Origin: Octopus vulgaris
Lineage: Eukaryota
Assembly: GCA_951406725.2 (NCBI GenBank)
Contig: OX597822.1
Location: forward strand, 104,780,001 to 104,844,000
DNA: 64,000 nt
Direction of reading: 5' to 3'
Below the pieces are notes generated by a model that searched no databases, had not been told where the DNA came from, and was given only the letters and a program-made list of their open reading frames with translations. The translations under genes and the position numbers were made by a program. This document shows, piece by piece, positions 5,648 to 64,000 of this stretch. Each line of letters starts with the position of its first letter. Positions within the stretch are counted from its first letter, which is position 1.

Positions 5648-6806
5648 GTTTATCTGTGCGTGTGCACGTGTGTTTGTTTATATATATATTTACATAAATA
5701 CATACATACATACATACATACATACACACATGAAGAGGAAATACATTAACTGTGGCCAGACATGGAGAACGATGGGTTTCACCAGATAGAATTGTGAAAA
5801 CAAAACAACTAAATATTCCACCGTTGTTGGATAAATTGTTTAAAAGCAACTTAATGAATGGTGACCAATGAAGCTTCCCTCAAGAATTTTGTGTACAATC
5901 TCCTGGGAAATATGCACCGCTTCTTTAAAACATAACTAGAAAACACCTTTCTTGCACTAGTATTAATTTCTAGCAGCTACAAACGGCTACACATACAAGG
6001 AGAGATTATGATCACGTAAACTCCCTAAGGGAGTTGCTTCTGCGTGGCCGCAGTTCAATGACTGTTACCTGCAGTAGAATAAAATAAATATTACTTTCAA
6101 GTAAATCTTATTTAATAGACACCAGTACTTTAAATGTCAATCTTTCACATCACGGATGGATGAAATGCCAAATTGACCACAAACATATTTGAACATAGTA
6201 TATAAAAGATAACTAAATATCACAAATTATTTGGTGCGATGCTCTAAAAGTTTCGCCAATTTACCGTCCTAGAACAGATTTTTAATTAAGAGTAGAATGT
6301 TAAATCATGTATATTTAAATTGCTATTGTTCGTTTTGTTTCAGTTTAGAAAGATATTTAAAACTCAAAGAAATGCTGACAGAATATCTATATTTCTCTGA
6401 TCACAACTTCAGCCAACAATTTTGTCTTCTTTAAGTTATAAATTGAAATTCTGCCAAAATAAATTTCGGTTAACTTTAGATTCTCAGATCTAACACTAGT
6501 AGCCAAATTTGTTTCCCAACCTGTTATATACGACAGGTTAGATGAAATATTGAAGCAGTTTTTAGAGGGTCTTTCATACTCTGCATAAAATGTACTTGCT
6601 CGAAGAATGTATTTTCTTTATTCTTGTAACAGATAGCGTTTCACATGATGTTGGAGGCACCTTCATTACTATTACTTCCCTGTTCTTGAAGAAGGATGTC
6701 ATACATTGTTCTTGCTAGTATTGTTTGACTTACACTTTGCAATTATATAGATTGCCTTAGCTTTTGATTTCAGTGTTTCTTCCCAAGTGCCACTGTGCCT
6801 GTATAC

Positions 6807-11766: not shown

Positions 11767-12155
11767 ACAGGAGTGGCTGTGTGGTAAGTAGCTTGTTTAC
11801 CAACCACGTGGATCCGGGTACAGTCCCACTGCGTGGCATCTTGGGCAAGTGTCTTCTACTTGTGAGTGGATTTGGTAGACGGAAACTAAAAGAAGCCCGT
11901 CGTATATATGTATATATATATATATGCGTGTGTGTGTTTGTGTGTCTGTGTTTGTACCCCTAGCATTGCTTGACAACCGATGCTGGTGTGTTTATGTCCC
12001 CGTTACTTAGCGGTTCGGCAAAAAGAGACCGATAGAATAAGTACTGGGCTTACAAAAGAATAAGCCCCGGGGTCGAGTTGCTCGATTAAAGGCGGTGCTC
12101 CAGCATGGCCGCAGTCAAATGACTGAAACAAGTAAAAGAAAGAAAGAAAGAAAGA
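11767..12155 (+). mobile_element. SINE group B with internal deletion
   Basis: Matches 15353 copy but lacks the ATAGCCCCGGGCCGACCAATGCC segment. Confidence 0.85.
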
Positions 12156-12862: not shown

Positions 12863-13093
12863 ATTTCTTTACTACCCACAAGGGGCTAAACACAGAGGGG
12901 ACAAACAAGGACAGACAAACGGATTAAGTGGATTACATCGATCCCAGTGCGTAACTGGTACTTAATTTATCGACCCCAAAAGGATGAAAGGCAAAGTCGA
13001 CCTCGACTGAATTTGAACTCAGAACGTAACGGCAGACGAAATACGGCTACGCATTTCGCCCGGCGATCTAACGTTTCTGCTAGCTCGCCGCCT
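12863..13093 (-). mobile_element. SINE group A monomer (Meta/Sauria-like central domain)
   Basis: Head GGCGGCGAGCTAGCAGAAACGTTAG, B-box GAGTTCAAATTC, central GCCTTTCATCCTTT.GGGGTCGATAAATTAAGTACCAG. Confidence 0.85.
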
Positions 13094-13461
13094 TGAATAT
13101 ATATATATAGATCTTGCCTCGGATTCATTCGGCAATTTGAAGATAATGTGGTCTTCCTCTTCATTGTATTACATTTTAACTCAGGTTAGTCTTCATCATT
13201 TGTCCCTTCCTCCTTTTATCGCAAATATTGGGGCCGATCTCAGTCCCTGTACTAACTACTACGCCCAGTGTTATCTACAATTCCCACCTTGCACAATTTC
13301 ACCGTACCGACCACTCCAGTCTCGTTGGGTGTGCAGGACTCACTGGCGCAGTATTTGTCTCTAAATCAATACTACAAACAAACATTACTGAGCATGCTAC
13401 AATCACATGTAGATTAAACGTAATCCATAGGCACACATAACGTCCCACTGTCTAACACTAC

Positions 13462-14612
13462 CTATTTCTTTACTACCCACAAGGGGTTAAACACAGAGGG
13501 TACAAACAAGGACAGACAAACGGATTAAGTCGATTATATCGACCCCAGTGCGTGACTGGTACTTAATTTATCGATCCCGAAAGGATGGAAGGCAAAGTAG
13601 ACCTCGACGGAATTTGAACTCAGAACGTAGCGCCAGATGTAATACCTATTTCTTTGCTACCCACAAGGGGTTAAACACAGAGGGTACAAACAAGGACAGA
13701 CAAACGGATTAAGTCGATTATATCGACCCCAGTGCGTGACTGGTACTTAATTTATCGATCCCGAAAGGATGGAAGGCAAAGTAGACCTCGACGGAATTTG
13801 AACTCAGAACGTAGCGCCAGATGTAATACCTATTTCTTTGCTACCCACAAGGGGTTAAACACAGAGGGGACAAACAAGGACAGACAAACGGATTAAGTCG
13901 ATTATATCGACCCCAGTGCGTAACTGGTACTTATTTAATCGAACCCGAAAGGATGAAAGGCAAAGTCGACCTCGGTGGAATTTGAACTCAGAACGTAACG
14001 GCAGACGAAATACCTATTTCTTTACTACCCACAAGGGGCTAAACACTGAGGGGACGAACAAGGACAGACAAACGGATTAAGTCGATTATATCGACCCCAG
14101 TGCGTAACTGGTACTTAATTTATCGACCCCGAAAGGATGGAAGGCAAAGTAGACCTCGACGGAATTTGAACTCAGAACGTAGCGCCAGATGTAATACCTA
14201 TTTCTTTGCTACCCACAAGGGGTTAAACACAGAGGGGACAAACAAGGACAGACAAACGGATTAAGTCGATTATATCGACCCCAGTGCGTAACTGGTACTC
14301 ATTTAATCGAACCCGAAAGGATGAAAGGCAAAGTCGACCTCGGCGGAATTTGAACTCAGAACGTAGCGCCAGACGTAATACCTATTTCTTTGCTACCCAC
14401 AAGGGGTTAAACACAGAGGGGACAAACAAGGACAGACAAACGGATTAAGTCGATTATATCGACCCCAGTGCCTAACTGGTACTTAATTTATTGACCCCGA
14501 AAGGATAGAAGGCAAATTCGACCTCGGTGGCATTTGAACTCAGAACGTAGCGGCAGACAAAATACCACTAAGCATTTCGCCCGTCGTGCTAACATTTCTG
14601 CCAGCTTGCCGC
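13462..14612 (-). repeat. Tandem array of six 184-bp SINE A units with one head
   Basis: CTATTTCTTT.CTACCCAC starts at 13462, 13646, 13830, 14014, 14198, 14382; the head is present only at 14566-14612. Confidence 0.95.
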
Positions 14613-15289
14613 TATTCTGCCTTACACTACCGAGCTCTGAATCATAAATAAAGAGACGATCCAGCAGGCCTCCGTACAATACTCTCCTAGTTAATTTCAC
14701 TCTCATGATTTCTTCAATCTGAGTCTATGGCAGAAACGGCAGCGCAGTGGGATCGACATCGGAATGTCATGATTAAAAAATGAACTTCCTAATAACTTAA
14801 CCATGCTTTCATATGATAAATTCAAAATTAAAAAATAACTTTATTGATTTAGTTCAGTGTGTGAGACTAAATAGTCGTTCCTTCATAGCTGATAGTAATC
14901 TTCACAAGTGGAATCTAGAAGTTCTTTTTCTTAATTTTTTTTATTTTCCAAAATAGTTCAAAGAAGGTGTTGAAATATATAATGTTAGAAAATATAGGCA
15001 AAAATAAATTTTAATATTATACATAAAGAAACTTAAAGATTATACTATTTCAGTAACATTTTCTTCAAAAACACACACACACGCACACATACATATGTAT
15101 TTTATTTTAATCGGAGTGATTCATTTAAACTGGGGAAAAATTTAATTTGCTAAGTTACTATGAAACCAACATCTGTTGCACGATAGAATTATTACACGTA
15201 GGTGTGTTTCAATCCCGACAAAACCTTATAATTATTATTAAAAATATACTATTCTGTAAACTGGCAAATGTCTTATTCCTATATATTCC

Positions 15290-21845: not shown

Positions 21846-22497
21846 GTATATAGTTAACAAAAAAATTTAAGAAAACATGGAAATAAAAATGACTGAATGT
21901 ATGGATGGTGAAGGTCCTTGTCTACAGAGTATCAAAAATAGTGGTTGCGAATAAGTGTTCACAGATTAGAGCATTGAATTATATGTATGAATGTGGTGGT
22001 TAGGGTCACGCGATTAAGAAAGCCTTTTTTTAAATCATAAAATTGCTTTAATTCTACTCGCAATTATACATTTGATCACATTTTAAATTTGTAACATTTA
22101 AATACAGAGATAGAGAACAAAAGAGTGATGAATATGGAAAAGAAGGAAAAAGAAGGGGGCAAAGCAGTAGAAGACTGATTTGGAGGGGGCTATTGGTCAT
22201 ACACACTAGAACAAGTAGTGTGCTAAACCGCGCCTCTCTTTAACGACCGATATGGCGTTGCTGTGGAGGATGGCTAGTGATACACCGTGTTGCAGCCACT
22301 CCACTCTCGCGGGGCTAATTATTTGTCAGACGGGCCAACTTTACACCGATTTGCGGACGAAGTCAGTAGTACGGAGGTTTGCAGCTTCGGGTGGCTTCCA
22401 GAATGAAGGAGGTAGAAGTGACCTTGTTGGTGATGATTGGGGGAGGGGGAAGGACTAAGGGACGAAGGAAGAACGATGTGATAACAGACAGCGAAAC

Positions 22498-22731
22498 CTA
22501 TTTCTTTACTACCCACAAGGGGCTTCACACAGAGGGGACAAACAAGGACAGACAATCGAATTAAGTCGATTACATTGACCCCAGTGCGTAACTGGTACTT
22601 AATTTATCGACCCCGAAAGGGTGAAAGGTAAAGTCGACCTCGGCGGAATTTGAACTCAGAACGTAACGGCAGACGAAATACGGCTACGCATTTCGCCCGG
22701 CGTGCTAACGTTTCAGCCAGCTCGCCGCCTT
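22498..22731 (-). mobile_element. SINE group A monomer with 15-bp TSD
   Basis: ACAGACAGCGAAACC at 22484-22498 and 22732-22746. Confidence 0.92.
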
Positions 22732-23381
22732 ACAGACAGCGAAACCGAAACAGAACAATCAAAAACTGACAGATACACACTCATAGGCGCGCATACACTC
22801 ATACATATCTTGAAGGTTGTCGACGAATTTTTTGCAAGGGCGATCATAGACAGTGAAACCGAGGAATAGAGCAGTTGTACGCATATAAATGGAAACACAC
22901 ATACGCGTGAAGACACGTACACACATCTTCAAAGACATACGTATATGCAGGCACATATACGATCACCGGTAAAGTCGTACAGGTATAGAAAAACACCAGA
23001 TCTTATAGTGGTAGGTTTTCGGAGTTGAAGAGGTCGATGGAAAATGGCAATATGTATATGAGAGTGTGTACGTGTGTGCGCTCGTATGCGCGTATGTGTA
23101 TTTTTTGTGAGCCGTGATAGATTAAAAAACAAAGAAAATGTAGATCAAAGAAGGAACGATTGAAAGAGAAAAAAAAAATCGAATAAGGAAAAAGGAAGAT
23201 GAAAATAATGAGAGAAAGAGAAGATAAATGTCGAGCGTAATAAAAACATCCGATCGAGCGACGTGGCATGCTCGTTTTCGGTATATAGAATAATATAAAT
23301 ACTGATAGAAACATGGCGGGTGTGCGAGCCTTGTTTGTAATGCTGTGTGTTTGTTGTCTGCAATAGGAAATGAAGGCCATT

Positions 23382-26249: not shown

Positions 26250-26634
26250 TACTTTATAAGGATTGACGTAACTCCCCACAAAGATAAATTGACAATACGA
26301 AGAGTGTGATGCGATTGCAAGTGATGTTTTATTGGATTGAATATTTCGACGGCATGCAAGTCTTTATTGAGTTCAGTGATAATTTTGAATTTCTATTTAT
26401 CACTTTTCAGTTTGAAATATTGTCCAAATATTGTTCAAACCAATAAAAATTCTATTAGAATCTCATCTCGCTCTTCGTATTGCCTACTATTTCTATTTCT
26501 TTACTACCCACAAGGGGCTAAACACAGAGGGGACAAACAAGAACAGACAAACATATTAAGTCGATTATATCGACCCCAGTGCGTAACCGGTACTTATTTA
26601 ATCGACCCCAAAAGGATGCCTACTATTTCTGTTT

Positions 26635-27218: not shown

Positions 27219-27267
<49 letters not shown>

Positions 27268-27272
<5 letters not shown>

Positions 27273-27730
27273 TAGTTTTATTTTTATAGCGTGCTTTCAC
27301 TTCACTACCGAGCGCAGCTCTGTGTGCCTTGGGTATGTGCTGTGATTTGTTGTGATGCTCTGATGGTTATTGTATGGAAAGTGTTCTGCGTAGGATGTGT
27401 GCAGTGCCTAGTAGTGCAATTATATGTTATTATTATTATTATTATTATTCAGTAGTTTTATTTTTATAGCGTGCTTTCACTTCACTACCGAGCGCAGCTC
27501 TGTTTGCCTTGGGTATGTACTGTGATTTGTTGTGATGCTTTGATGGTTATTGTATGGAAAGTGTTCTGCGTAGGATGTGTGCAGTGCCTAGTAGTGCAAT
27601 TTTCTGTATGTTATATGTGTTTGTAAGTCCTGGTGTTTTTGTTATGTATTTGTCTGAATATTTTTTTATCATGCCTAATGCACCTATTATGATAGGAATT
27701 GTTTCTGTTTTCAGGTTCCACATACTAGTT
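27268..27730 (-). mobile_element. R4/Dong-like RLE LINE 3' end in (TAA)n, with a duplicated terminal ~155 bp
   Basis: Minus strand ETIPIIIGALG...QKIALLGTAHILRRTLSIQ; 27268-27420 repeats 27448-27600. Confidence 0.8.
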
Positions 27731-30765: not shown

Positions 30766-30789
30766 TTATCATTATTATTATTATTATTA

Positions 30790-31492
30790 TTCTATGTTTG
30801 ACTTTTGCTTTATATTTGTACAAGTTGGCTCCAAGTCTCACCCAGAGACCTCAAGAGACAACAGGGTTGGAAGTTCATGTTGTTGTTATGCCTAATGTGC
30901 CATATATTTGGGGGTGGGGATGTTGTACTAATGAATGTCTAAAAAGAAAAAAAAAAGGTTTTTTTTTTTTTTTTTTTTTTTTAAACCGAAAATTATGTTT
31001 GTTTTAAACCTTGAGATTACATAGAGAGTATTTTGCGTAGGATATGAGCAGTTCCCATGAGCACTATCTTTTGAACTTCTGCCATTTTTGGGTTTCCTGG
31101 TATCTGAGTTAGGTAGCTATCAGCCCCTTTTGCTATCATTCCCAGGGCACCTATGACAACAGGTATTGTTTTAGTCTTCAGCTTCCACATTTTGCTGATT
31201 TCTATTTCAAGATCTTTATATTTGCTCAGTTTTTGGTAGGTCTTGACAGATACGTTTATATCGATTGGGACAGTCATATCAATGAGGAGGCATGTTCTTT
31301 GTTTGAAGTTTTTCAATATGATGTCTGGCCTATTTGCATCTATCTTCCTGTCAGTTTGAATGGTGAAGTTCCAGAGGAGTGAGATGTGGTCATTTTCAAG
31401 CACTGGGGGTGGTTTGTGTTCCCACCAGTTTTTTTCGTGGGGCAAATCCAGGTTTTTACAGATTACCCAGTGAATATATTGTGCAGCTCTAT
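30790..31492 (-). mobile_element. 5'-truncated R4/Dong-like LINE, restriction-like endonuclease domain plus 3' UTR
   Basis: RPDII...LLIDMTVP...KLSKYKDLEIEISKMW...PVVIGALG...QKIVLMGTAHILRKILSM; (TAA)n on both sides. Confidence 0.9.
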
Positions 31493-31813: not shown

Positions 31814-34122
31814 TTTCGCTTAAGTATGACGATGCTAATTACGTGGGTGTTAGAAATCAATATACATACGCTTAAGAACAAAGCTTCAGTGAAGCATTGA
31901 GCGGTAAAAAAAAATAAAGTAAATAAATGATAGGGAAGTAAGACATTATGCCACGCACTCCATTAGCTTACGGCTGCTCCTGCTATAAGGTGCAATTCAA
32001 TTGTGTATGCATGCATGTATGTAGATGCAAAATACTAAATTCCTAAATGAACGAGAATAATTTTGTGACTGAATTGATATACAAATACTTGATAAACACA
32101 CGTTCTCCTCTACCCACATTGCCGCCATATAACATAGACCTTATAGCTAAACTACACGTTTCTCTCTGCAACTCGAATTCGAGAGCAGCTCACTTTCCAC
32201 AGGTTATTTCCGACTCATGAAGATATCTAATCGTATTCGTCCTGCAGGCAATGAAATCTGCTTTCAGCTTGGTTTAGGATGAAAGAAACGTCGAACAGGC
32301 GTCGATTATATTCATTTGCATATCTATACATTCAGGGCAGAAAAACATTAATTAATCTTCACTGCATTAATTAATAGCTAATTTGAAGTAATGTATTTAA
32401 AGATTCTGGCATATTTACTGATGTACATTGTGATATTGCTGTTGTGTATTTGATGAACGTCTATTTTATTAGAATCACGACCACGAAGTTATGATTCTGT
32501 GAGTAATATGAATGAGAGATAGAAAGCACTTTATTCTCCCTTGGCTGTATGATAGATATTCTTTTGTCTTTGACCTAAATTTTGCCTACTTATTAATCCC
32601 TGTTCGATCGAATGCTTCTGAATAGGTTATTAGTTTTAAGTTGTTTGGGATCTATAGTTCTACGTAAACAAGTGATTACATATATTAAAAGCTTTTGTTG
32701 CAAGAATCTTAATACAAAAGCTATGACGTCATTAGCGATGGATTATTTATTTCTAAATAGGGCGGCGTTGCACTGGTAAAAATCGTTAGAGCATCGGAAA
32801 GGAAGTCCCTTGTGGTATTTATACCGCTGGATTTTACGCTCTCACTTAAAATTCTACTTAGGAAAAACGATACATTTTATTATTTCAAGGTTGAGAGAAT
32901 TAAGTATTAGTCAAACTCTAAAGTCAGTTTAATCAAACTCTAAAGTCGGGAATTGCCACAAGTTTGCTTAGCCAGTTGAGCTAAAACTCCTCAGCCAAAC
33001 CATGGAGCGCCGACGATATGTGAAGTAATACTCTACTTGCAGGACATTGCCATCAGATCAATGAGGTTTGTAATGACGTCTATTTCTGTCAGCCCAGCAA
33101 CATTCGATAGGAACATTAATGGCCTCCATCAAAATGACCTTCGAGGGTGAGCGAACACTATGCGCAATCTCACTTCCTCCAGATCCAGGAAGTAAAAAAT
33201 ACAAAACAAGACAGACAGGAACTCAGACATTTTCTCATTTCTAATACATTATTTTCCCCTTTTTCTCTCCCCCCTCTCTCTCTCTCTAAAAACATTCATA
33301 TTAAAAGTGATAGCGCAAATGAAGAAAAAGTGACGAATACAAAATGCTTCACACATCTCCACTCCTTCAGCAAATTTATGGCAATAAAGGTCTGTCTCAT
33401 GATAGAGATATTTTTAATGTTAGAAGTAAGATTTAACAGTATTGAATCTAAAATAAATTTAGTGAGGCGAGAGGATTTCGAAATTTATGTGTACACAACT
33501 AATTACATCCTTGCTAATTATTCATTAATATCATTCAAATGTTAAAGCAACTTCAATGCTTTAACTCCCTGGCGAAGAAACTCATATAATAATTTATGCA
33601 AATAATGGAAATAATACAAATAATTAACAAAAATAATGTATGCAAATGGAAAACGTAGGAGGATTTCGGAAATGATAATTATGTTTTGAAGTTAAAATAA
33701 ATAGATCTCCTAATAATAATTCTGATGTCTAATGTCTTTTTTTTTAATATTTTTGTCAAGAGAAAAGGGTCTCTCAGATTTGGGGGGGGAAAGAAGTATC
33801 CTCAAACTGGAGATTCGGTCTGAGGATTTGCATCATGTGAGCGTCACTAAATCCACCCTGCCCCCAGTGTGTCAGGTGAAGGTGTGAAATTGTGAGACGG
33901 ATTGTAGTTCCACTCAAATGGGCCATGGTGAGATTCGAACATTAAACAAAACGCTATCAATTATCCAGTCCAATTTTTGGAGTTTATACAGTTGAAAGGC
34001 TGAGAAAAAAATTTGACTCGACGAATTATGAAATTAGAATACAAAGAGTCGGAATAACTATCGTGTGGCAATTTGCGGTGTGTGTGTATGCGTATGTGTG
34101 CATCTATATACATACATACATC

Positions 34123-51432: not shown

Positions 51433-51830
51433 AGGTGGCTAGCTGGCAGAAACGTTAGCACGACGGGCGAAATGCTTAGCCGTATTTCGTCTGCCGCTAC
51501 GCTCTGAGTTCAAATTTCGCCGAGGTCGACTTTGCCTTTCATCCTTTCGGGGTCGGTTAAATAAGTACCAGTTACGCACTGGGGTCGATATAATCAACTT
51601 AATCCGTTTGTCTGTCCTTGTTTGTCCTCTCTGTGTTTAGCCCCTTGTGGGTAGTAAAGAAATAGGTATTTCATCTACCGCTACGTTCTGAGTTCAAATT
51701 CCGCCGAGGTCGACTTTGCCTTTCATCCTTTCGGGGTCGATTAAATAAGTACCAGTTACGCACTGGTGTCGATATAATCGACTCAATCCGTTTGTCTGTC
51801 CTTGTTTGTCCCCTCTGTGTGTAGCCCCTT
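51433..51830 (+). mobile_element. SINE group A dimer, fused to a SINE B fragment (-) at 51836-51975
   Basis: Junction AAAGAAATAG|GTATTTC at about 51665. Confidence 0.88.
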
Positions 51831-52433
51831 GTAGACGACGGTCTACCAAATCCACTCACATAGCATTGGTCAGCATGTAGGGCTATAGTAGAAGACACTT
51901 GCCAAGGGTGTGATGCAGTGATGCTAAACTAGCAACTTTTGGGTTGGGCAGCTCGCTTTTTACCAAAGAGCCACAATCTAAGAATTCTCTCCCTTTTCCC
52001 TCTTGAAAAAATATTTCATTAATGACTGATTTTTACCTCCCATTGATAATTGTCCTTCAGCGAAAAGGTCAGCACCAATTCCATTGATAGCTTTGTAACT
52101 CCATTTAAATTAATGTGACTCGAATCTTTTTCAATGGTATATTCTAGACTCCAGGTTTATTTATTGTTCTAATGTTTTGTATAGAGAAAACAGAATGTCT
52201 ACATGTCCAACCTGCTGATTTATTATGCTGGTAACTGTCTTCCACCTTTGCCTTTATATATATATAAATACATACGTGCATATTTTAGAAATGACGGTAA
52301 TATATAAGGGTATTTTACCCCACCCTCTAAGCTGTCTTCACAACTATTCTCCTGCGTTCGAAATCTCATTTCTGAAATGCCAACTCACTCGACATTTCAG
52401 TGTGTGTGTGTTCACACACACACAGACACACAG

Positions 52434-54720: not shown

Positions 54721-54825
54721 TGAAGAGATCTGTTGTCAATGAACATCAAGGAAAAATCTCTGCTTACTAAAATGATATGTAAGCGATTTAACAATGGTTT
54801 CAAATTTTTTCACAAGTACAGCTAT

Positions 54826-55365
54826 TTCAGGGGAGGGTGTAAGTCGATTATATCGACCCCACTGCTCAATTGGTAGTTAGATTTGCGGCTGTGGAAGGAT
54901 TAAAGACGAAGTCGACCTCTGCGGATTTTAAACTCAAAACGTACAGACGACGAAATGCCTATTTCCTTACTACCCACAAGGGGCTAAACATAGAGGGGAC
55001 AAACAAGGACAGGAAAAGGGATTAAGTCGATTACATCGACCCCAGTACGTTACTGGTACTTATTTAATCGACCCCGAAAGGATGAAAGGCAAAGTCGATC
55101 TCGGCGCAATTTGAACTCAGAACGTAGCGGCAGACGAAATAACTCTTTTTTTACTACCCAAAAGGCGCTAAACACAGAGAGTACAAACAGGGACACAAAA
55201 ACGGATTAAGTCGATTATATCAACACCATTACGTAACTGGTACTTAATTTATCGACCCCGAAACGATGAAAGGCAAAGTTGACCTCGGCGGAATTTGAAC
55301 TCAGAACATAGCGGCAGACGAAATACTGCTAAGTATTTCGCCCAGCATGCTAACGATTCTTCTAG
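54826..55365 (-). mobile_element. SINE group A multimer (two clear units plus one older unit)
   Basis: Junctions GAAATGC|CTATTTC (~54958) and GAAATAA|CTCTTTT (~55142). Confidence 0.8.
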
Positions 55366-55610
55366 TTTACTGTTTTCGTAAAAGTTTTAATGATAATTAT
55401 TATAATAATCCTTTCTATTATAGACAAAGGAGCTGAAATTTGAGATAAATGTTTAGTCGATTACATCGACCCCCGAAAAGATGAGAGGGAAAGTCGATAT
55501 TCGCGGAATTTGCCCTCAGAATGCAAAGGCATACGAAATGTCGCTAAGAATTTTGTCCGACGTACGAACTATTCTACTATTTCGTTGCCTTACTACTGCT
55601 GCTACTGCTG

Positions 55611-55714
<104 letters not shown>

Positions 55715-55732
55715 CATCATCATCATCATCAT

Positions 55733-56052
55733 CAGATACCAGGAAACCCCAAAATTGCAGAAATTCAAAAGATAGTGCTCATGGGAACTGCTCATATCCT
55801 ACGCAAAATACTCTCTATGTAATCCCAAGGTTTAAAACAAACTTTTGTTTTTATTATTTTTATTTATTTATTTATTTATTTTTTAAATTTATTTTTATGT
55901 ATTAGACATTCACTAGTACAACACCAAAAAAAAAGAAGGAAAAAAACCCCCCAAATATATGGCACAGAACTTCTAACCTGTTGTCTCTTGAGGTCTCTGG
56001 GTCAGACTTGGAGCCAACTTGTACAGACATAAAGCAAAAGTCAAACATAGAA
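55733..56052 (+). mobile_element. R4/Dong-like LINE 3' end, same family as 30790
   Basis: QIPGNPKIAEIQKIVLMGTAHILRKILSM plus the shared 3' UTR ending CAAACATAG(AAT)n. Confidence 0.88.
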
Positions 56053-56435
56053 TAATAATAATAATAATTTCAATTGCTTCAATATTGGCATTGGGTATTA
56101 CAATTGGAGATGCAGTCTTTCTGTATACTATCGACTCAGGTGCTTGACTGGTACTTTATTATATTGAAATACTGCGGGATGAAACGCGAAGCTGACCCCC
56201 TGCTGGGATTTCAACTGAGAGTATAAAATGCCAGAACATATACCGCAAGGCATTTTTTTTTCCTCTGGGTCCCTGATGATACTACCATTCTACAAGGCCA
56301 ACATCGTTACTATCAACACAAGTATTTGACTGTTACTATTGTTTTATAGGACGCGGTAATTTAAATACCAATCACCCACTGAAATACCTAGATGTAGTTA
56401 TATATATATATATTAGTGCTTTAATATAATGTCCT

Positions 56436-57876: not shown

Positions 57877-58343
57877 TCATTGCTTATTTAGCTTGGGTTC
57901 GAATTTATCAATAAAATTCTTTTCTCTGATTTTCCTCTCGATTTCACTTGGGCTGTGTAATTTGTAGAATGGAAATATTATATATATTTTCCGACCACAT
58001 GTTGCTAGGTGGTTACTCAAAGGTATCTGACGGACCTCTGGGTCTCTAATCTGTTGCCGGTGTACACGTGAGCGTTCTAATAGTGCGTTTCCCGTCTGAC
58101 CTACATATATTTCTTCACAATTTGGGCATTTGATGCAGTAAATTAAATTTCTGCTTTTGCAGTTCATATTCGCGTTTGTGAATATTTTCCCGGTTTTTGT
58201 GTTTATATATTGACCGGTATGTATGAATTGGCATGTGCCACATCGGCTATCATTGCATTTAGATACCGTGAATGTTTGGTCTTTGTTGCTGAGGTCAAAT
58301 TTTGCCTTTGTTAGTAATGTTTTCAAGTTTTTAGGCTGTCTTT
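57877..58343 (-). CDS. GIY-YIG endonuclease domain of a Penelope-like element (N-terminally truncated)
   Basis: KCNDSRCGTC...CKSRNLIYCIKCPNCEEIYVGQTG...ERSRVH...HL...REKNFIDKFEPKLN; open frame up to the inversion point. Confidence 0.88.
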
Positions 58344-58490
58344 GTAATTGAGTGATACTACACACTGATTGGTCAGAATACAGTTTGCAAAACCTAGCAC
58401 TCTGGAGCCTACCCAGCTGTATTTATAGCACAGAATCACTCATCTTGCTACAGTCAAAAATTGTGAAGCATGACTGTCAACACTACTACA

Positions 58491-60238: not shown

Positions 60239-60967
60239 TCAAGTATCAATATACGATCAAAACTTAAATGAGTAGCACTCATACCTCTATCCTATGTCAC
60301 ACTTTCAAATCGCTTGCAAAATGACTGAAATAAAACCCTATACAAGTCAATGAAATGACCTCTACATGGTCTCTAGAACTGCTAGAGAAAGCAGCGAAAT
60401 CTAATTCAGATCACTCAAACATTTTCGATCCGCTACAGAACGAAAGCTCACCATGCTGTTATTGACCTCTCTATGTTAGTTATATGTCAGTCTAAAATAA
60501 CCAATTGCATGATGAACGGTTTAACCTTCTGCTGGATCGGTTTAAGAGCCTATTTGCATTTACTGGCCGATTGTGGGTGGGACGTATTATCCTCTTATTG
60601 GGACGATATATTTTATTCGTCTATGCATCTATGCTGGCAAATGACTAGCTGGACCCAATATTCTCATGTAAACCTACTTGTCTTTGCTGACCAATAGCAG
60701 GCTGGACATGGTATCCCCGTACTGAATGAGGCTGAAAGCTCAGACTCAGCTGTTGTCTCAACGATGTCCTCATTTCCGGACTAGACTATAGAGTTGCCGA
60801 CCTACGCTGGTCAATTACAGTGCAGACGGGAGTATCCCATATAGAGTCAGATGATTAATGCTTACCGTTAGTACTTTAAACACAGAATTCAAACTCAGCT
60901 GTAATTGCTACTACAGGACACATCCCGTCTGACATTTTGAAACCTCATCGATCTGGCTGTACAGTAC

Positions 60968-61197
60968 CTATTTCTTTATTACCCACAAGGGGCTAAACAT
61001 AGATGGGACAAACAAGAACAGACATAGGTATTAAGTCGATTACATCGACCCCAGTGTGTAACTGGTACTTAATTTATCGACCCTGAATGGATGAAAGGCA
61101 AAGTTGATCTCGGCAGAATTTGAACTCCGAATGTAACGGCAGACGAAATACGGCTACGCATATCGCCTGGTGTGCAAACGTTTCTGCCAGCTTGCCG
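60968..61197 (-). mobile_element. SINE group A monomer with TSD
   Basis: GCTGTACAGTAC on both sides. Confidence 0.88.
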
Positions 61198-61339
61198 CTG
61201 TACAGTACAGTACCATTGCTTTATTTATCGACTCCAAAAGAATGAAAAGCATATTTAACGTCGGCAGGATTTGAACCGAGAACGCAGAATCGGAATGTAT
61301 GCTGCAATGCATTGTATTCGAAGTCCTAACTACTTTGTC

Positions 61340-63170
61340 TCTAACAGTAATTTAGCGAGACGCAAGATTTTTCACACATCTCACAATGATATGGTTTTAC
61401 TCTTGTGTGTCTACGTTTGTTGATAACAAGGTTTGAATTATTAAAGAATAAGTAATTACATAATTCATAGTGAAACATTTTGCATTCAGTGTGTGAATCG
61501 TGTTTTATTAAATCACTATCATTGATAAAAGATTCTCAGAATATTTCGAAAGTGAAGGATTTTTCTCTACAGTGTATTATGTTGTGAACTATAAGATTAT
61601 CTACAACTACTAGGACACCGAGAAAACAAACTGGATTATGTGGAAATAGGGAAAATTCCATATGCTCTTTCACTTATAGAGAAAATAATTATCTCTTAAG
61701 ATAGAAAAAAAAATGTAGTAGACTCTGAAGCAGTGTTCTCTCCTTAAGAAAAATATTCACCCTCTCTGTAATCTCTCAGTGATCTCCCTTTTCTCTCCCT
61801 CTCTTTCCTCTTAGCACGTGAGCAACCATAAGTAGCAACAGTAATAGGTTCCAGTCAAATGCCCATATAGGATCAGAATTCTGAGAGAAATATGTCACAA
61901 TGATATGGTCTTTTTTCCTGTGGGAATATATTTGTAAGCCGCAAGATGTGAATTAAGAAATAATTTTCCGCTATTTCACATTGAAAGGTTTTTTCTCCAG
62001 TGCGTAGTCTATTGGGCGTTGATAAAATACTATAATAGTCAAAATATTTCCCACAAACATCACAACGACAAGGTTTATTTCCAGTATATAGATTTTGTGA
62101 ACTACAAGATAAAAATTACATCGTGTAACAAACTCGTTATTTGTTTTTGTCTCTGGTCAGTCGGTGTTTTTTTCCTATTTGCTTCAATCTAGAAATCAAA
62201 AGAAATAACTAGTATTTTCTCCAAACTCCGCTTTTGTGACCTAGACATCAATGATTTGAAACTAACCTATTTTCTGTTACATTTCAGACAGATTCAGTGC
62301 TGAGCTGCTGAAGCAGAATTATCGTTGTAGTGAATATTCTGGTCAATACACCATAACTATTTGTAAGTCGCTTGACCGTAACCACTTGAGCCTGATCCTT
62401 AGTGGCTGATGGTATATGCGTCTCTGATCATGAGCAGGAATAGTGGGGTAGCATCATAACCATGTGCTGAGAAGGATTCTTTAGGGTGTAAATAAATATC
62501 GTAACAAACACGAGACAGTTGCTACCCAATGAGGAAAATCATGTTACACAATGTTATTAACGAAAGTTTTTTTTATATATATCATAATAATAGTTTTTTT
62601 TAGCAGTGTGTATTCTTTTGTGAACTACAATTTGATAATTATTAATGAATGATTTTCCACAGGCCCAGTCTGATCTGGCAGTGTTGCTACAGCTGGATGT
62701 CCTTCTTAACGCCATGGAGTGGTTGGCGTTAGGAAGGGCATCCAGCTGTAGAAACACTGCCAGATCAGACCGGGCCTGGTGCAGCCTCCTGATTTCCCAG
62801 ACCCCAATCGAACCGTCCAACCTATGCTAGCATGGAAAGTGGACGTTAAACGATGATGATGATGATTGTTTCACAATGATATGTCTTATCTCTAATGTGA
62901 CAACATTTGTGAACAACAAGATTAGAATTGTTAAAAAAAATTTCTACAAATTTTACAATCATAGCATTTCTCTCCAGTGTCTATTAATCTTGTGAATGTT
63001 TCAGTGACCATTGGTAATAAACGATTTACCACATATTTAACGATGACAGCGTGACTCTCCAGAATGTATTTTTTTCGGATTACAAGATTTGAATTCTGAA
63101 GGATTACTCATATATTTCACATTCATATGGCTAACTCCAGTGCGTGTTCGTTTGTACTTTGCTAAATTAC
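61340..63170 (-). pseudogene. Decayed tandem C2H2 zinc-finger array
   Basis: YTGNKPCRCDVCGKYF...RTGEKTFQCEI; CGKSFINNYQIVVHKRIHT; IHSGESRCHR*ICGKSF; many stops, frameshifts and insertions. Confidence 0.8.
62661..62866 (+). mobile_element. SINE/LINE-type 3' end with (GAT)n tail and a 5' inverted copy
   Basis: 62661-62714 is the reverse complement of 62725-62778; tail GGACGTTAAACGATGATGATG. Confidence 0.75.
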
Positions 63171-63182
63171 TGTTATTGGTAA

Positions 63183-63412
63183 GGGGCGAACTGGCAGAAA
63201 CGTTAGCACGCCGGGCGAAATGCTTAGCAGTATTTCCTCTGCCGCTACGTTCTGAGTTCAAATTCCGCCGAGGTCAACTTTGCCTTTCATCCTTTCGGGG
63301 TCGATAAATTAAGTACCAGTTACACACTGGGGTCGATGTAATCAACTTAATCCGTTTGTCTGTCCTTGTTTGTCCCCTCTGTTTGTAGTCCCTTGTGAGC
63401 AGTAAAGGAATA
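63183..63412 (+). mobile_element. SINE group A monomer
   Basis: Full head through tail GTAAAGGAATA. Confidence 0.88.
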
Positions 63413-64000
63413 AGGATTTTTAGCACGCCGGGTGAAATGCGTAGCGTCACTTGGTCTGTCTTTAGGTTCTGAGTTCGAATCCCAACGAGGCTGACTTTGC
63501 CTTTCGCAGGTCGATAAAAGAAGTATCAATTGTCATCTTACACCCTCCCTCAAAATCGATGACCTTTGTGCTAAAATTTCAATTTATATTACTGGTTATT
63601 GACATAACATTTTCCTCCTATTTCATTACAGTAGCGTTTTTCTCTACTATGTTTTCCTTTGAGCAAGGAAACTTCATATTCTGAAGAGAACATTTTCCTA
63701 CCTATCTTGCAAGAATACTCGAAGGCATTTCCACGTAATGATGTTTGTTTACCAAATGTTTCACTTCACAAAGGATTCTCAGTATCAATTCTCAAGAGAA
63801 AGTTGAAAAAATGTCTGTTAAAATATACCTTTAATGGTACAGTTTCTTGTCATAGATTTTATAAGTCTCTGTTAACATGAGTTGAAAAGATGGAATGTAT
63901 GCTACAACGCAAAGTATACTGCAATGCATTGCAGTATATTACTTTGACTATTCGCCACCTTCTTTAAATGTTCCAATGTACCGTTTCCTTTGTTAACAGA

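Follow-up and report, generated by a model that had tools for sequence, protein, structure and literature searches.

SINE A copies, arrays and composites

The 64-kb window (the whole stretch of Octopus vulgaris DNA that was analysed) is AT-rich and dense in microsatellites, and contains eight loci, on both strands, of an interspersed non-coding element of about 234 bp, here termed SINE A, whose copies were located by BLAST and nhmmer across the window. These loci are 12863, the hexamer H, 22484, 26493, the dimer D at 51433, the composite X at 54826, 60956 and 63182. The same searches of the window revealed several copies of older, more diverged relatives (B-type), which have the head and centre of SINE A and carry other tails. 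Related SINE sequence adjoins five of the eight SINE A loci and makes up 6.5% of the window. Other old, diverged copies of the head and centre, with different tails, lie at 6151-6266, 32770-32936, 55460-55587 and 56128-56255.

A-box and B-box-like patterns are present in the head and units of SINE A. ARAGORN found no tRNA gene in the window, and Rfam, applied at the gathering level to the window and at the E-value level to the array and one monomer, gave chance matches only and no tRNA or ribozyme. The fold of the full monomer is unexceptional (z=-1.54). The central domain and the repeat landscape may resemble those of the octopus CORE-type SINEs OR1 and OR2 (Ohshima and Okada 1994, as cited in PMC4824008 and PMC4758252); motif searches of papers and their supplements for a published consensus matching SINE A gave no match. 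A search of the window for a partner LINE found none, and no LINE 3′ end matching the SINE A tail was seen there. An open frame at 31017-31490 (minus strand), with others at 30774-31107 and 55732-56068, lies beside a (TAT)n/(ATC)n tract and may resemble the restriction-like endonuclease region at the C terminus of R4/Dong-type retrotransposons; Pfam gave no significant match. At 57880-58422 (minus strand) a GIY-YIG domain (PF01541, E=2.8e-6, above the cut-off) was detected, which is likely to be the end of a Penelope-like element.

Target-site duplications (TSDs) were assessed at ten boundary pairs, each compared with 20,000 random flank pairs, of which six were significant and four were not. 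TSDs of 12-15 bp were found at all four monomer or truncated loci; they belong to the SINEBase definition of a SINE, as do a length below 1 kb, an interspersed distribution and a lack of coding sequence, all of which SINE A shows. The stand-alone monomer at 22484..22746 has an exact 15-bp TSD that starts with GGT (15/15, p=0.0003), and the monomer at 60956..61208, which interrupts an older-type copy (61214-61330) without matching its register, has an exact 12-bp TSD that starts with GTA (12/12, p=0.0009), as expected from the initial annotation, which had described both as monomers with ordinary TSDs. The same test was significant for the stand-alone monomer at 12863..13093, whose TSD is of low complexity and whose tail ends short of GG, and for the 5′-truncated copy at 26480..26631 (locus 26493), which has a 14-bp TSD and the bases 78T/81A and 110A that are typical of the arrays. 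All four are on the minus strand.

The hexamer was detected by TRF at 13459-14557 (period 184, 6.0 copies, 94% matches). Read on the minus strand, it consists of a single head (14567..14612) followed by six 184-bp units without any internal head, as had been claimed. The head holds the only A-box pattern of the array and the 5′ arm of a 12-13 bp hairpin, the loop of which lies just before the site at which each tail re-enters the body, and a B-box-like motif occurs once in each of the six units. The units are H1 (14383..14566), H2 (14199..14382), H3 (14015..14198), H4 (13831..14014), H5 (13647..13830) and H6 (13463..13646). H6, the last, has a complete tail, and the inner tails are the same as this last tail and the tails of the monomers. 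The whole hexamer is enclosed by a TSD-like pair (14617..14631 and 13448..13462, 13/15, p=0.0044), of which the 5′ copy begins with GGTA and the first four bases of the 3′ copy are likewise the GGTA of the junction. Four extra bases, possibly untemplated additions, separate the 5′ copy from the head (14613-14616, minus strand).

Two further arrays were detected by TRF, at 51482-51832 (1.9 copies) and 54895-55325 (2.3 copies). The first belongs to the dimer D (51433..51832, plus strand), which comprises a head, a unit at 51481-51664, a junction at 51665 and a second unit cut in its tail, and is a dimer, as initially annotated. The tail of its second unit abuts an opposite-strand fragment (51835-51973) of another SINE family, copies of which occur at 11768 and elsewhere, and this abrupt end suggests a deletion that joined the two. 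The second belongs to composite X (54792..55375, minus strand), in which a diverged head is followed by two SINE A units (55327-55144 and 55143-54960) and by an older-type body and tail joined in the same register (54959). Its head shows nine differences in the first 24 nt, compared with one to four in six other heads. Over the shared body, the two SINE A units have 94% and 93% identity to the SINE A majority, compared with 79% for the third body, which carries another tail. This locus, initially described as a SINE A multimer, is not a pure one.

At 63181..63580 (plus strand) a full SINE A is joined to an older-type body at a different site, head position ~17, about 30 nt further upstream than the site shared by H, D and X. 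The SINE A part has 96% and the B-type body 70% identity to the SINE A majority. A TSD-like pair (63163-63178 and 63585-63601) encloses both parts, and is significant for SINE A and B-type together (p=0.0027) but not for SINE A alone (p=0.63). The older-type bodies of the two composites, at 79% and 70%, compare with 92-96% for the six SINE A units tested, and at both 54826 and 63182 SINE A occupies, in register, a relative that is older and has a different tail. TSDs around a whole array were found at one of the three arrays: the hexamer is flanked in this way, whereas D and X (two boundaries, best p=0.09) gave no significant pair. A 180-bp segment at 27240-27607 that is unrelated to SINE A is also tandemly duplicated (97%), with a (TAT)n run in front of both copies, and looks like a microsatellite-mediated duplication or a repeat end.

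Register of the junction and its flanking bases

All eight tail-to-body junctions in H, D and X share one register, ...GAAATA|GG(T/C)ATT.... The five junctions of the hexamer are not independent of each other, so these eight represent three loci in the window rather than eight origins, and the site is used at three of the eight SINE A loci. The initial annotation had proposed a single fixed site of joining; this is upheld by the three arrays, but the join at 63182 adds a second site. At the junction that follows the second SINE A unit of X, the next base differs (GGCATT instead of GGTATT), and a C at this position was seen by eye in three of four other aligned B-type copies, which suggests that the switch to B-type sequence falls right at the junction.

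The junction had also been read as a palindrome, GAAATA-GG-TATTTC, which would make the tail complementary to the re-entry site. Our analysis does not support the emphasis placed on it. The palindrome is perfect at two of the eight junctions, with five of six pairs at five others and four of six at one; four of the five hexamer junctions read TATTAC, and H4 is the only hexamer unit to follow a perfect palindrome. When the full-length RNA is modelled, the predicted partner of the re-entry site is the hairpin arm within the head (7.99 expected pairs), and no pairing with the tail is predicted (0.0). The palindrome has as its 3′ arm the 3′ arm of this 12-13 bp hairpin, the re-entry site lies 1-2 nt past the hairpin loop, and the hairpin also folds with DNA parameters in six of seven heads. 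Predicted hairpin energies are 0 to -4.3 kcal/mol at the junctions, compared with -12.7 to -20.7 kcal/mol for the head hairpin. Of 49,176 positions outside microsatellites, 183 have a 6-bp inverted repeat with a spacer of 0-4, which makes such a palindrome uncommon, but the one at the junctions represents a single ancestral event. It was rejected as a driver of joining, in view of its two perfect instances and the weakness of the junction hairpins relative to the head hairpin, and is likely to be a by-product of the head hairpin, since the tail is similar to its 5′ arm and the re-entry site is its 3′ arm.

The relation that fits priming is instead a direct match (GGTA). In target-primed reverse transcription, priming would leave a direct match between the end of the RNA and the start of the TSD, and in three of the five insertions that have a SINE A tail and a TSD, the TSD starts with GGTA, GGT or GTA (rough post hoc p=1.6e-4), whereas the other two differ. 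On this logic, the effective 3′ end of SINE A is likely to carry the first bases of the next unit. With 291 copies of GGTA in the window, three of eight loci would be expected to fall at about 13 head sites with a probability of 0.004; a four-base match alone is therefore insufficient for targeting.

Growth of the hexamer and origin of the arrays

The units of the hexamer differ from each other by 1 to 16 bases, with one difference between H5 and H6, 5 between H2 and H4, 6 between H3 and H6 and 14 between H1 and H2; the two units of D differ at 11. Variable columns that are shared among hexamer units number 13, compared with a mean of 4.4 under a star model in which six identical copies mutate independently with CpG weighted tenfold, and this was matched in 0 of 20,000 simulations. 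In the four-gamete test, 11 of 66 pairs of biallelic columns were incompatible. Identical runs extend over 212 nt at a lag of 184, which includes H5, and over 172 nt at a lag of 368. Two bases are private to the hexamer, where they occur in five and four of the six units, and are seen in none of the other copies that cover those columns. H1 and H3 carry the 78A/81T variant and H2 and H4 the 78T/81A variant. These shared private bases and recombinant combinations point to in-place duplication and conversion as the source of the later units, and much of H would have arisen in this manner from a founder that already had both variants, a point that the initial annotation had missed. The near identity of H5 and H6 may have been produced by the assembly. 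A TSD around the whole array would also result if a monomer had inserted first and become a dimer by conversion afterwards.

Diagnostic bases separate the loci further. The three stand-alone full monomers have the head loop GCGTAGCC and 17T, whereas the four composite first units have a (G/A)CTTAG loop and 17C (Fisher p=0.029). These marker tests were post hoc, chosen after the alignment had been seen, and cover eight loci, for which p=0.029 is the smallest value that the counts allow. In addition, 110A is present in the first units of all three arrays and in none of four other head-bearing copies, while 78T/81A is present in all three arrays and the truncated copy 26493, and again in none of the four other head-bearing copies. 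There are exceptions, as the first unit of D has a head yet carries 78T/81A, and the second SINE A unit of X has 110G. The composite loci thus share diagnostic bases that are absent from stand-alone monomers, which supports a multimeric source lineage; the pattern, although imperfect, points to a multimer-forming sub-lineage rather than to random monomers multimerising.

We consider it on balance probable that the hexamer, with its one head and six units in a single TSD-like pair, began as a dimer or trimer of a multimer-forming sub-lineage and grew by unequal exchange. The RNA steps of such a history would run as follows. A sub-lineage of SINE A would spread as multimers, its template RNA running past the tail into GGUA(UUU), as from a transcribed multimer. 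A partner LINE would prime reverse transcription where the end of this RNA matches nicked DNA. At ordinary sites, a monomer or multimer would insert with a TSD; in the head of another SINE the match would be longer, and the other end of the cDNA could pair with the homologous head, giving an in-register landing and no second head. Attachment of the 5′ end by annealing is among published models (PMC2912911). Unequal exchange would then lengthen the arrays, and the junction would most likely be inherited and self-reinforcing via the multimeric source. Transcription by Pol III may sometimes end at the TATTT of the junction, which would then be a leaky terminator; in mammalian B2 constructs, TATTT was effective as a stop in 42% of cases (PMC8466645). 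T runs of at least 4 are absent from the D array and number one in the H array. However, TATTT is also present at position ~50 of every head, with TATTTT there at the start of H1, and would cut transcripts short, which counts against this proposal.

This account retains part of the initial interpretation. A non-random route had been favoured, and is supported by array flanks that lack homology and by the use of one site at three of eight SINE A loci. Among the routes then offered, a multimeric master copy or source has gained support from the diagnostic bases that composites share and monomers lack, as has self-targeted insertion from SINE A lying inside older relatives at 54826 and 63182. A bolder extension, which we hold only tentatively, is that of a homing SINE. 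Here, a guide at the transcript end (GGUAUUU..., supplied by the unit that follows, its end being fixed by a Pol III stop encoded in the junction) would steer the partner LINE to prime on the heads of other SINEs just past the hairpin loop, and young copies would enter old relatives in register, take over their promoters, regenerate the guide-making multimer and seed SINE-derived satellites at a predetermined unit.

The main rival explanation, which we regard as unlikely, operates on DNA only. Genomic multimers would act as donors from which one founder junction is copied into homologous SINE heads, through ectopic gene conversion or the repair of breaks that may arise at the head hairpin. Unequal crossing-over would come next, and retrotransposition would yield monomers only. 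This would yield the same in-register chimeras, and it is favoured by the recombination within the hexamer and by a site directly past a hairpin loop that also folds as DNA; unequal recombination has, in addition, been invoked for SINE-derived satellites (PMC10702118). The observed structures fit RNA-primed insertion and DNA-templated repair off a multimer donor alike and cannot separate the two. However, exchange between DNA copies leaves unexplained both the TSDs at ordinary sites that start with the first bases of the junction and the array-type bases in a 5′-truncated, TSD-flanked copy.

Template jumping appears rather improbable. In this case, reverse transcriptase would reach the 5′ end of an RNA that lacks the head, owing to a cut or stall at the hairpin loop, and would then jump to the 3′ end of another SINE RNA via a GUA match, producing a mixed array in one event. 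A TSD around the whole array and units of different variants, such as H1 and H2 or the two units of D, are what this predicts; the site directly after the hairpin loop is suitable, and end-to-end jumping has been described for R2 (PMC2912911). However, the older-type bodies (70-79%) are far from the SINE A units to which they are joined (93-96%), which suggests resident DNA rather than co-copied RNA, and the later hexamer units are local duplicates. We find independent local slippage improbable too, by which duplication between the GGTA at the start of the body and the GGTA after the tail would remake the junction repeatedly. The four-base direct match is present and local duplication is evident in the hexamer, but first and second units are as different as copies at separate loci and carry family-level variants, slippage is unable to make the junctions between SINE A and older-type bodies, and the element has many other 4-bp repeats.

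A circular RNA, one of the routes proposed initially, is very improbable on the present data. A headless 184-nt RNA would be closed by pairing between its tail and 5′ end, ligated and reverse transcribed by rolling circle, as in retrozymes. Of 12 headless units taken in isolation, three are predicted to have paired ends (5.2-6.1 expected pairs; a value of 5 is reached by 8 of 150 shuffles), and the unit length is within the 170-400 nt range of retrozyme circles (PMC7229834). However, end pairing in the six hexamer units is 0.0-1.75, no Rfam ribozyme and no CTGANGA core was found on either strand of the array, and the head is kept in all three arrays. The units are also not clonal, as the star simulations indicated, and this mosaic structure argues against a single rolling-circle event. 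Circular fold energies were less negative than linear ones in four of four units, which is uninformative. Segmental duplication of one locus as the source of all arrays, although it would account for the common junction and some common bases, is extremely improbable and is excluded within the window, where BLAST found no matches among the eight flanks of H, D, X and 63182 and the arrays differ in composition (six SINE A units, two, and two plus an older type).

Comparison with known systems

The closest published parallel is also in a mollusc. In the blood clam Scapharca broughtonii, arrays of the form TSD1-(SINE)n-TSD1 contain a single complete head, and their repeated units are all cut at one point of the head (PMC11481361). 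The octopus arrays likewise have one complete head and repeats truncated at the same head position, with one TSD pair in the case of the hexamer. The two differ in that the inner tails of the clam are truncated and unequal recombination is discussed there (PMC11481361), whereas inner tails here are complete, the ends of monomers carry the first bases of the junction, and young units lie in register inside an older family. SINE arrays with one head and a surrounding TSD are therefore already on record from the clam (PMC11481361), while a search of mainly open-access literature yielded neither multimers of the SINE A family nor in-register entry of a young SINE into older relatives. The passages of PMC13282606 and PMC9795677 that were searched make no mention of SINE multimers.

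The SINE-derived satellites (sSat) of squamates show recurring units and dimeric alternation (PMC10702118). Like these, the present arrays are built on a scale of 150-180 bp from units that fall short of the full SINE, with a terminal unit that is longer; one and the same unit recurs at different loci, and dimeric patterns alternate. An sSat is defined by four or more middle units, each shorter than the SINE, and a longer terminal unit, and the hexamer has four middle units and a head-bearing first unit. However, sSat can comprise hundreds of units and are often subtelomeric (PMC10702118), compared with two to six units here. A 179-bp satellite of limpets is related to Nin-SINE (PMC11121367). 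Non-LTR retrozymes, with a hammerhead in each unit and expression as circles (PMC7229834), are similar in that invertebrate genomes contain them as short tandem repeats of two or more units, but the arrays described here have a promoter-type head and, in the hexamer, a TSD, and no hammerhead or other ribozyme was found in them.

SINE multimers are also known as dimeric families such as Alu (PMC3531059) and as head-to-tail multimers of B2, B1 and Dip, of up to eight units (PMC8466645). In both cases the authors leave the origin open, and for B2 the choice is between insertion into other copies and multimeric templates (PMC8466645). B2, B1 and Dip form tandems of whole SINEs, unlike the inner units here, which are headless and joined in register. 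The formation of tandem repeats from a SINE with the same unit at many loci has, in turn, been described as non-random and unexplained (PMC10702118). The markers of SINE A, namely the fixed junction, the junction bases at monomer ends, the diagnostic bases and the young-in-old chimeras, make the question of multimer origin testable. If only gene conversion and unequal crossing-over are at work, these arrays are an ordinary case of a known type; if RNA-guided, in-register entry is true, they would offer a concrete route for the exchange of SINE heads and tails and for the seeding of satellites.
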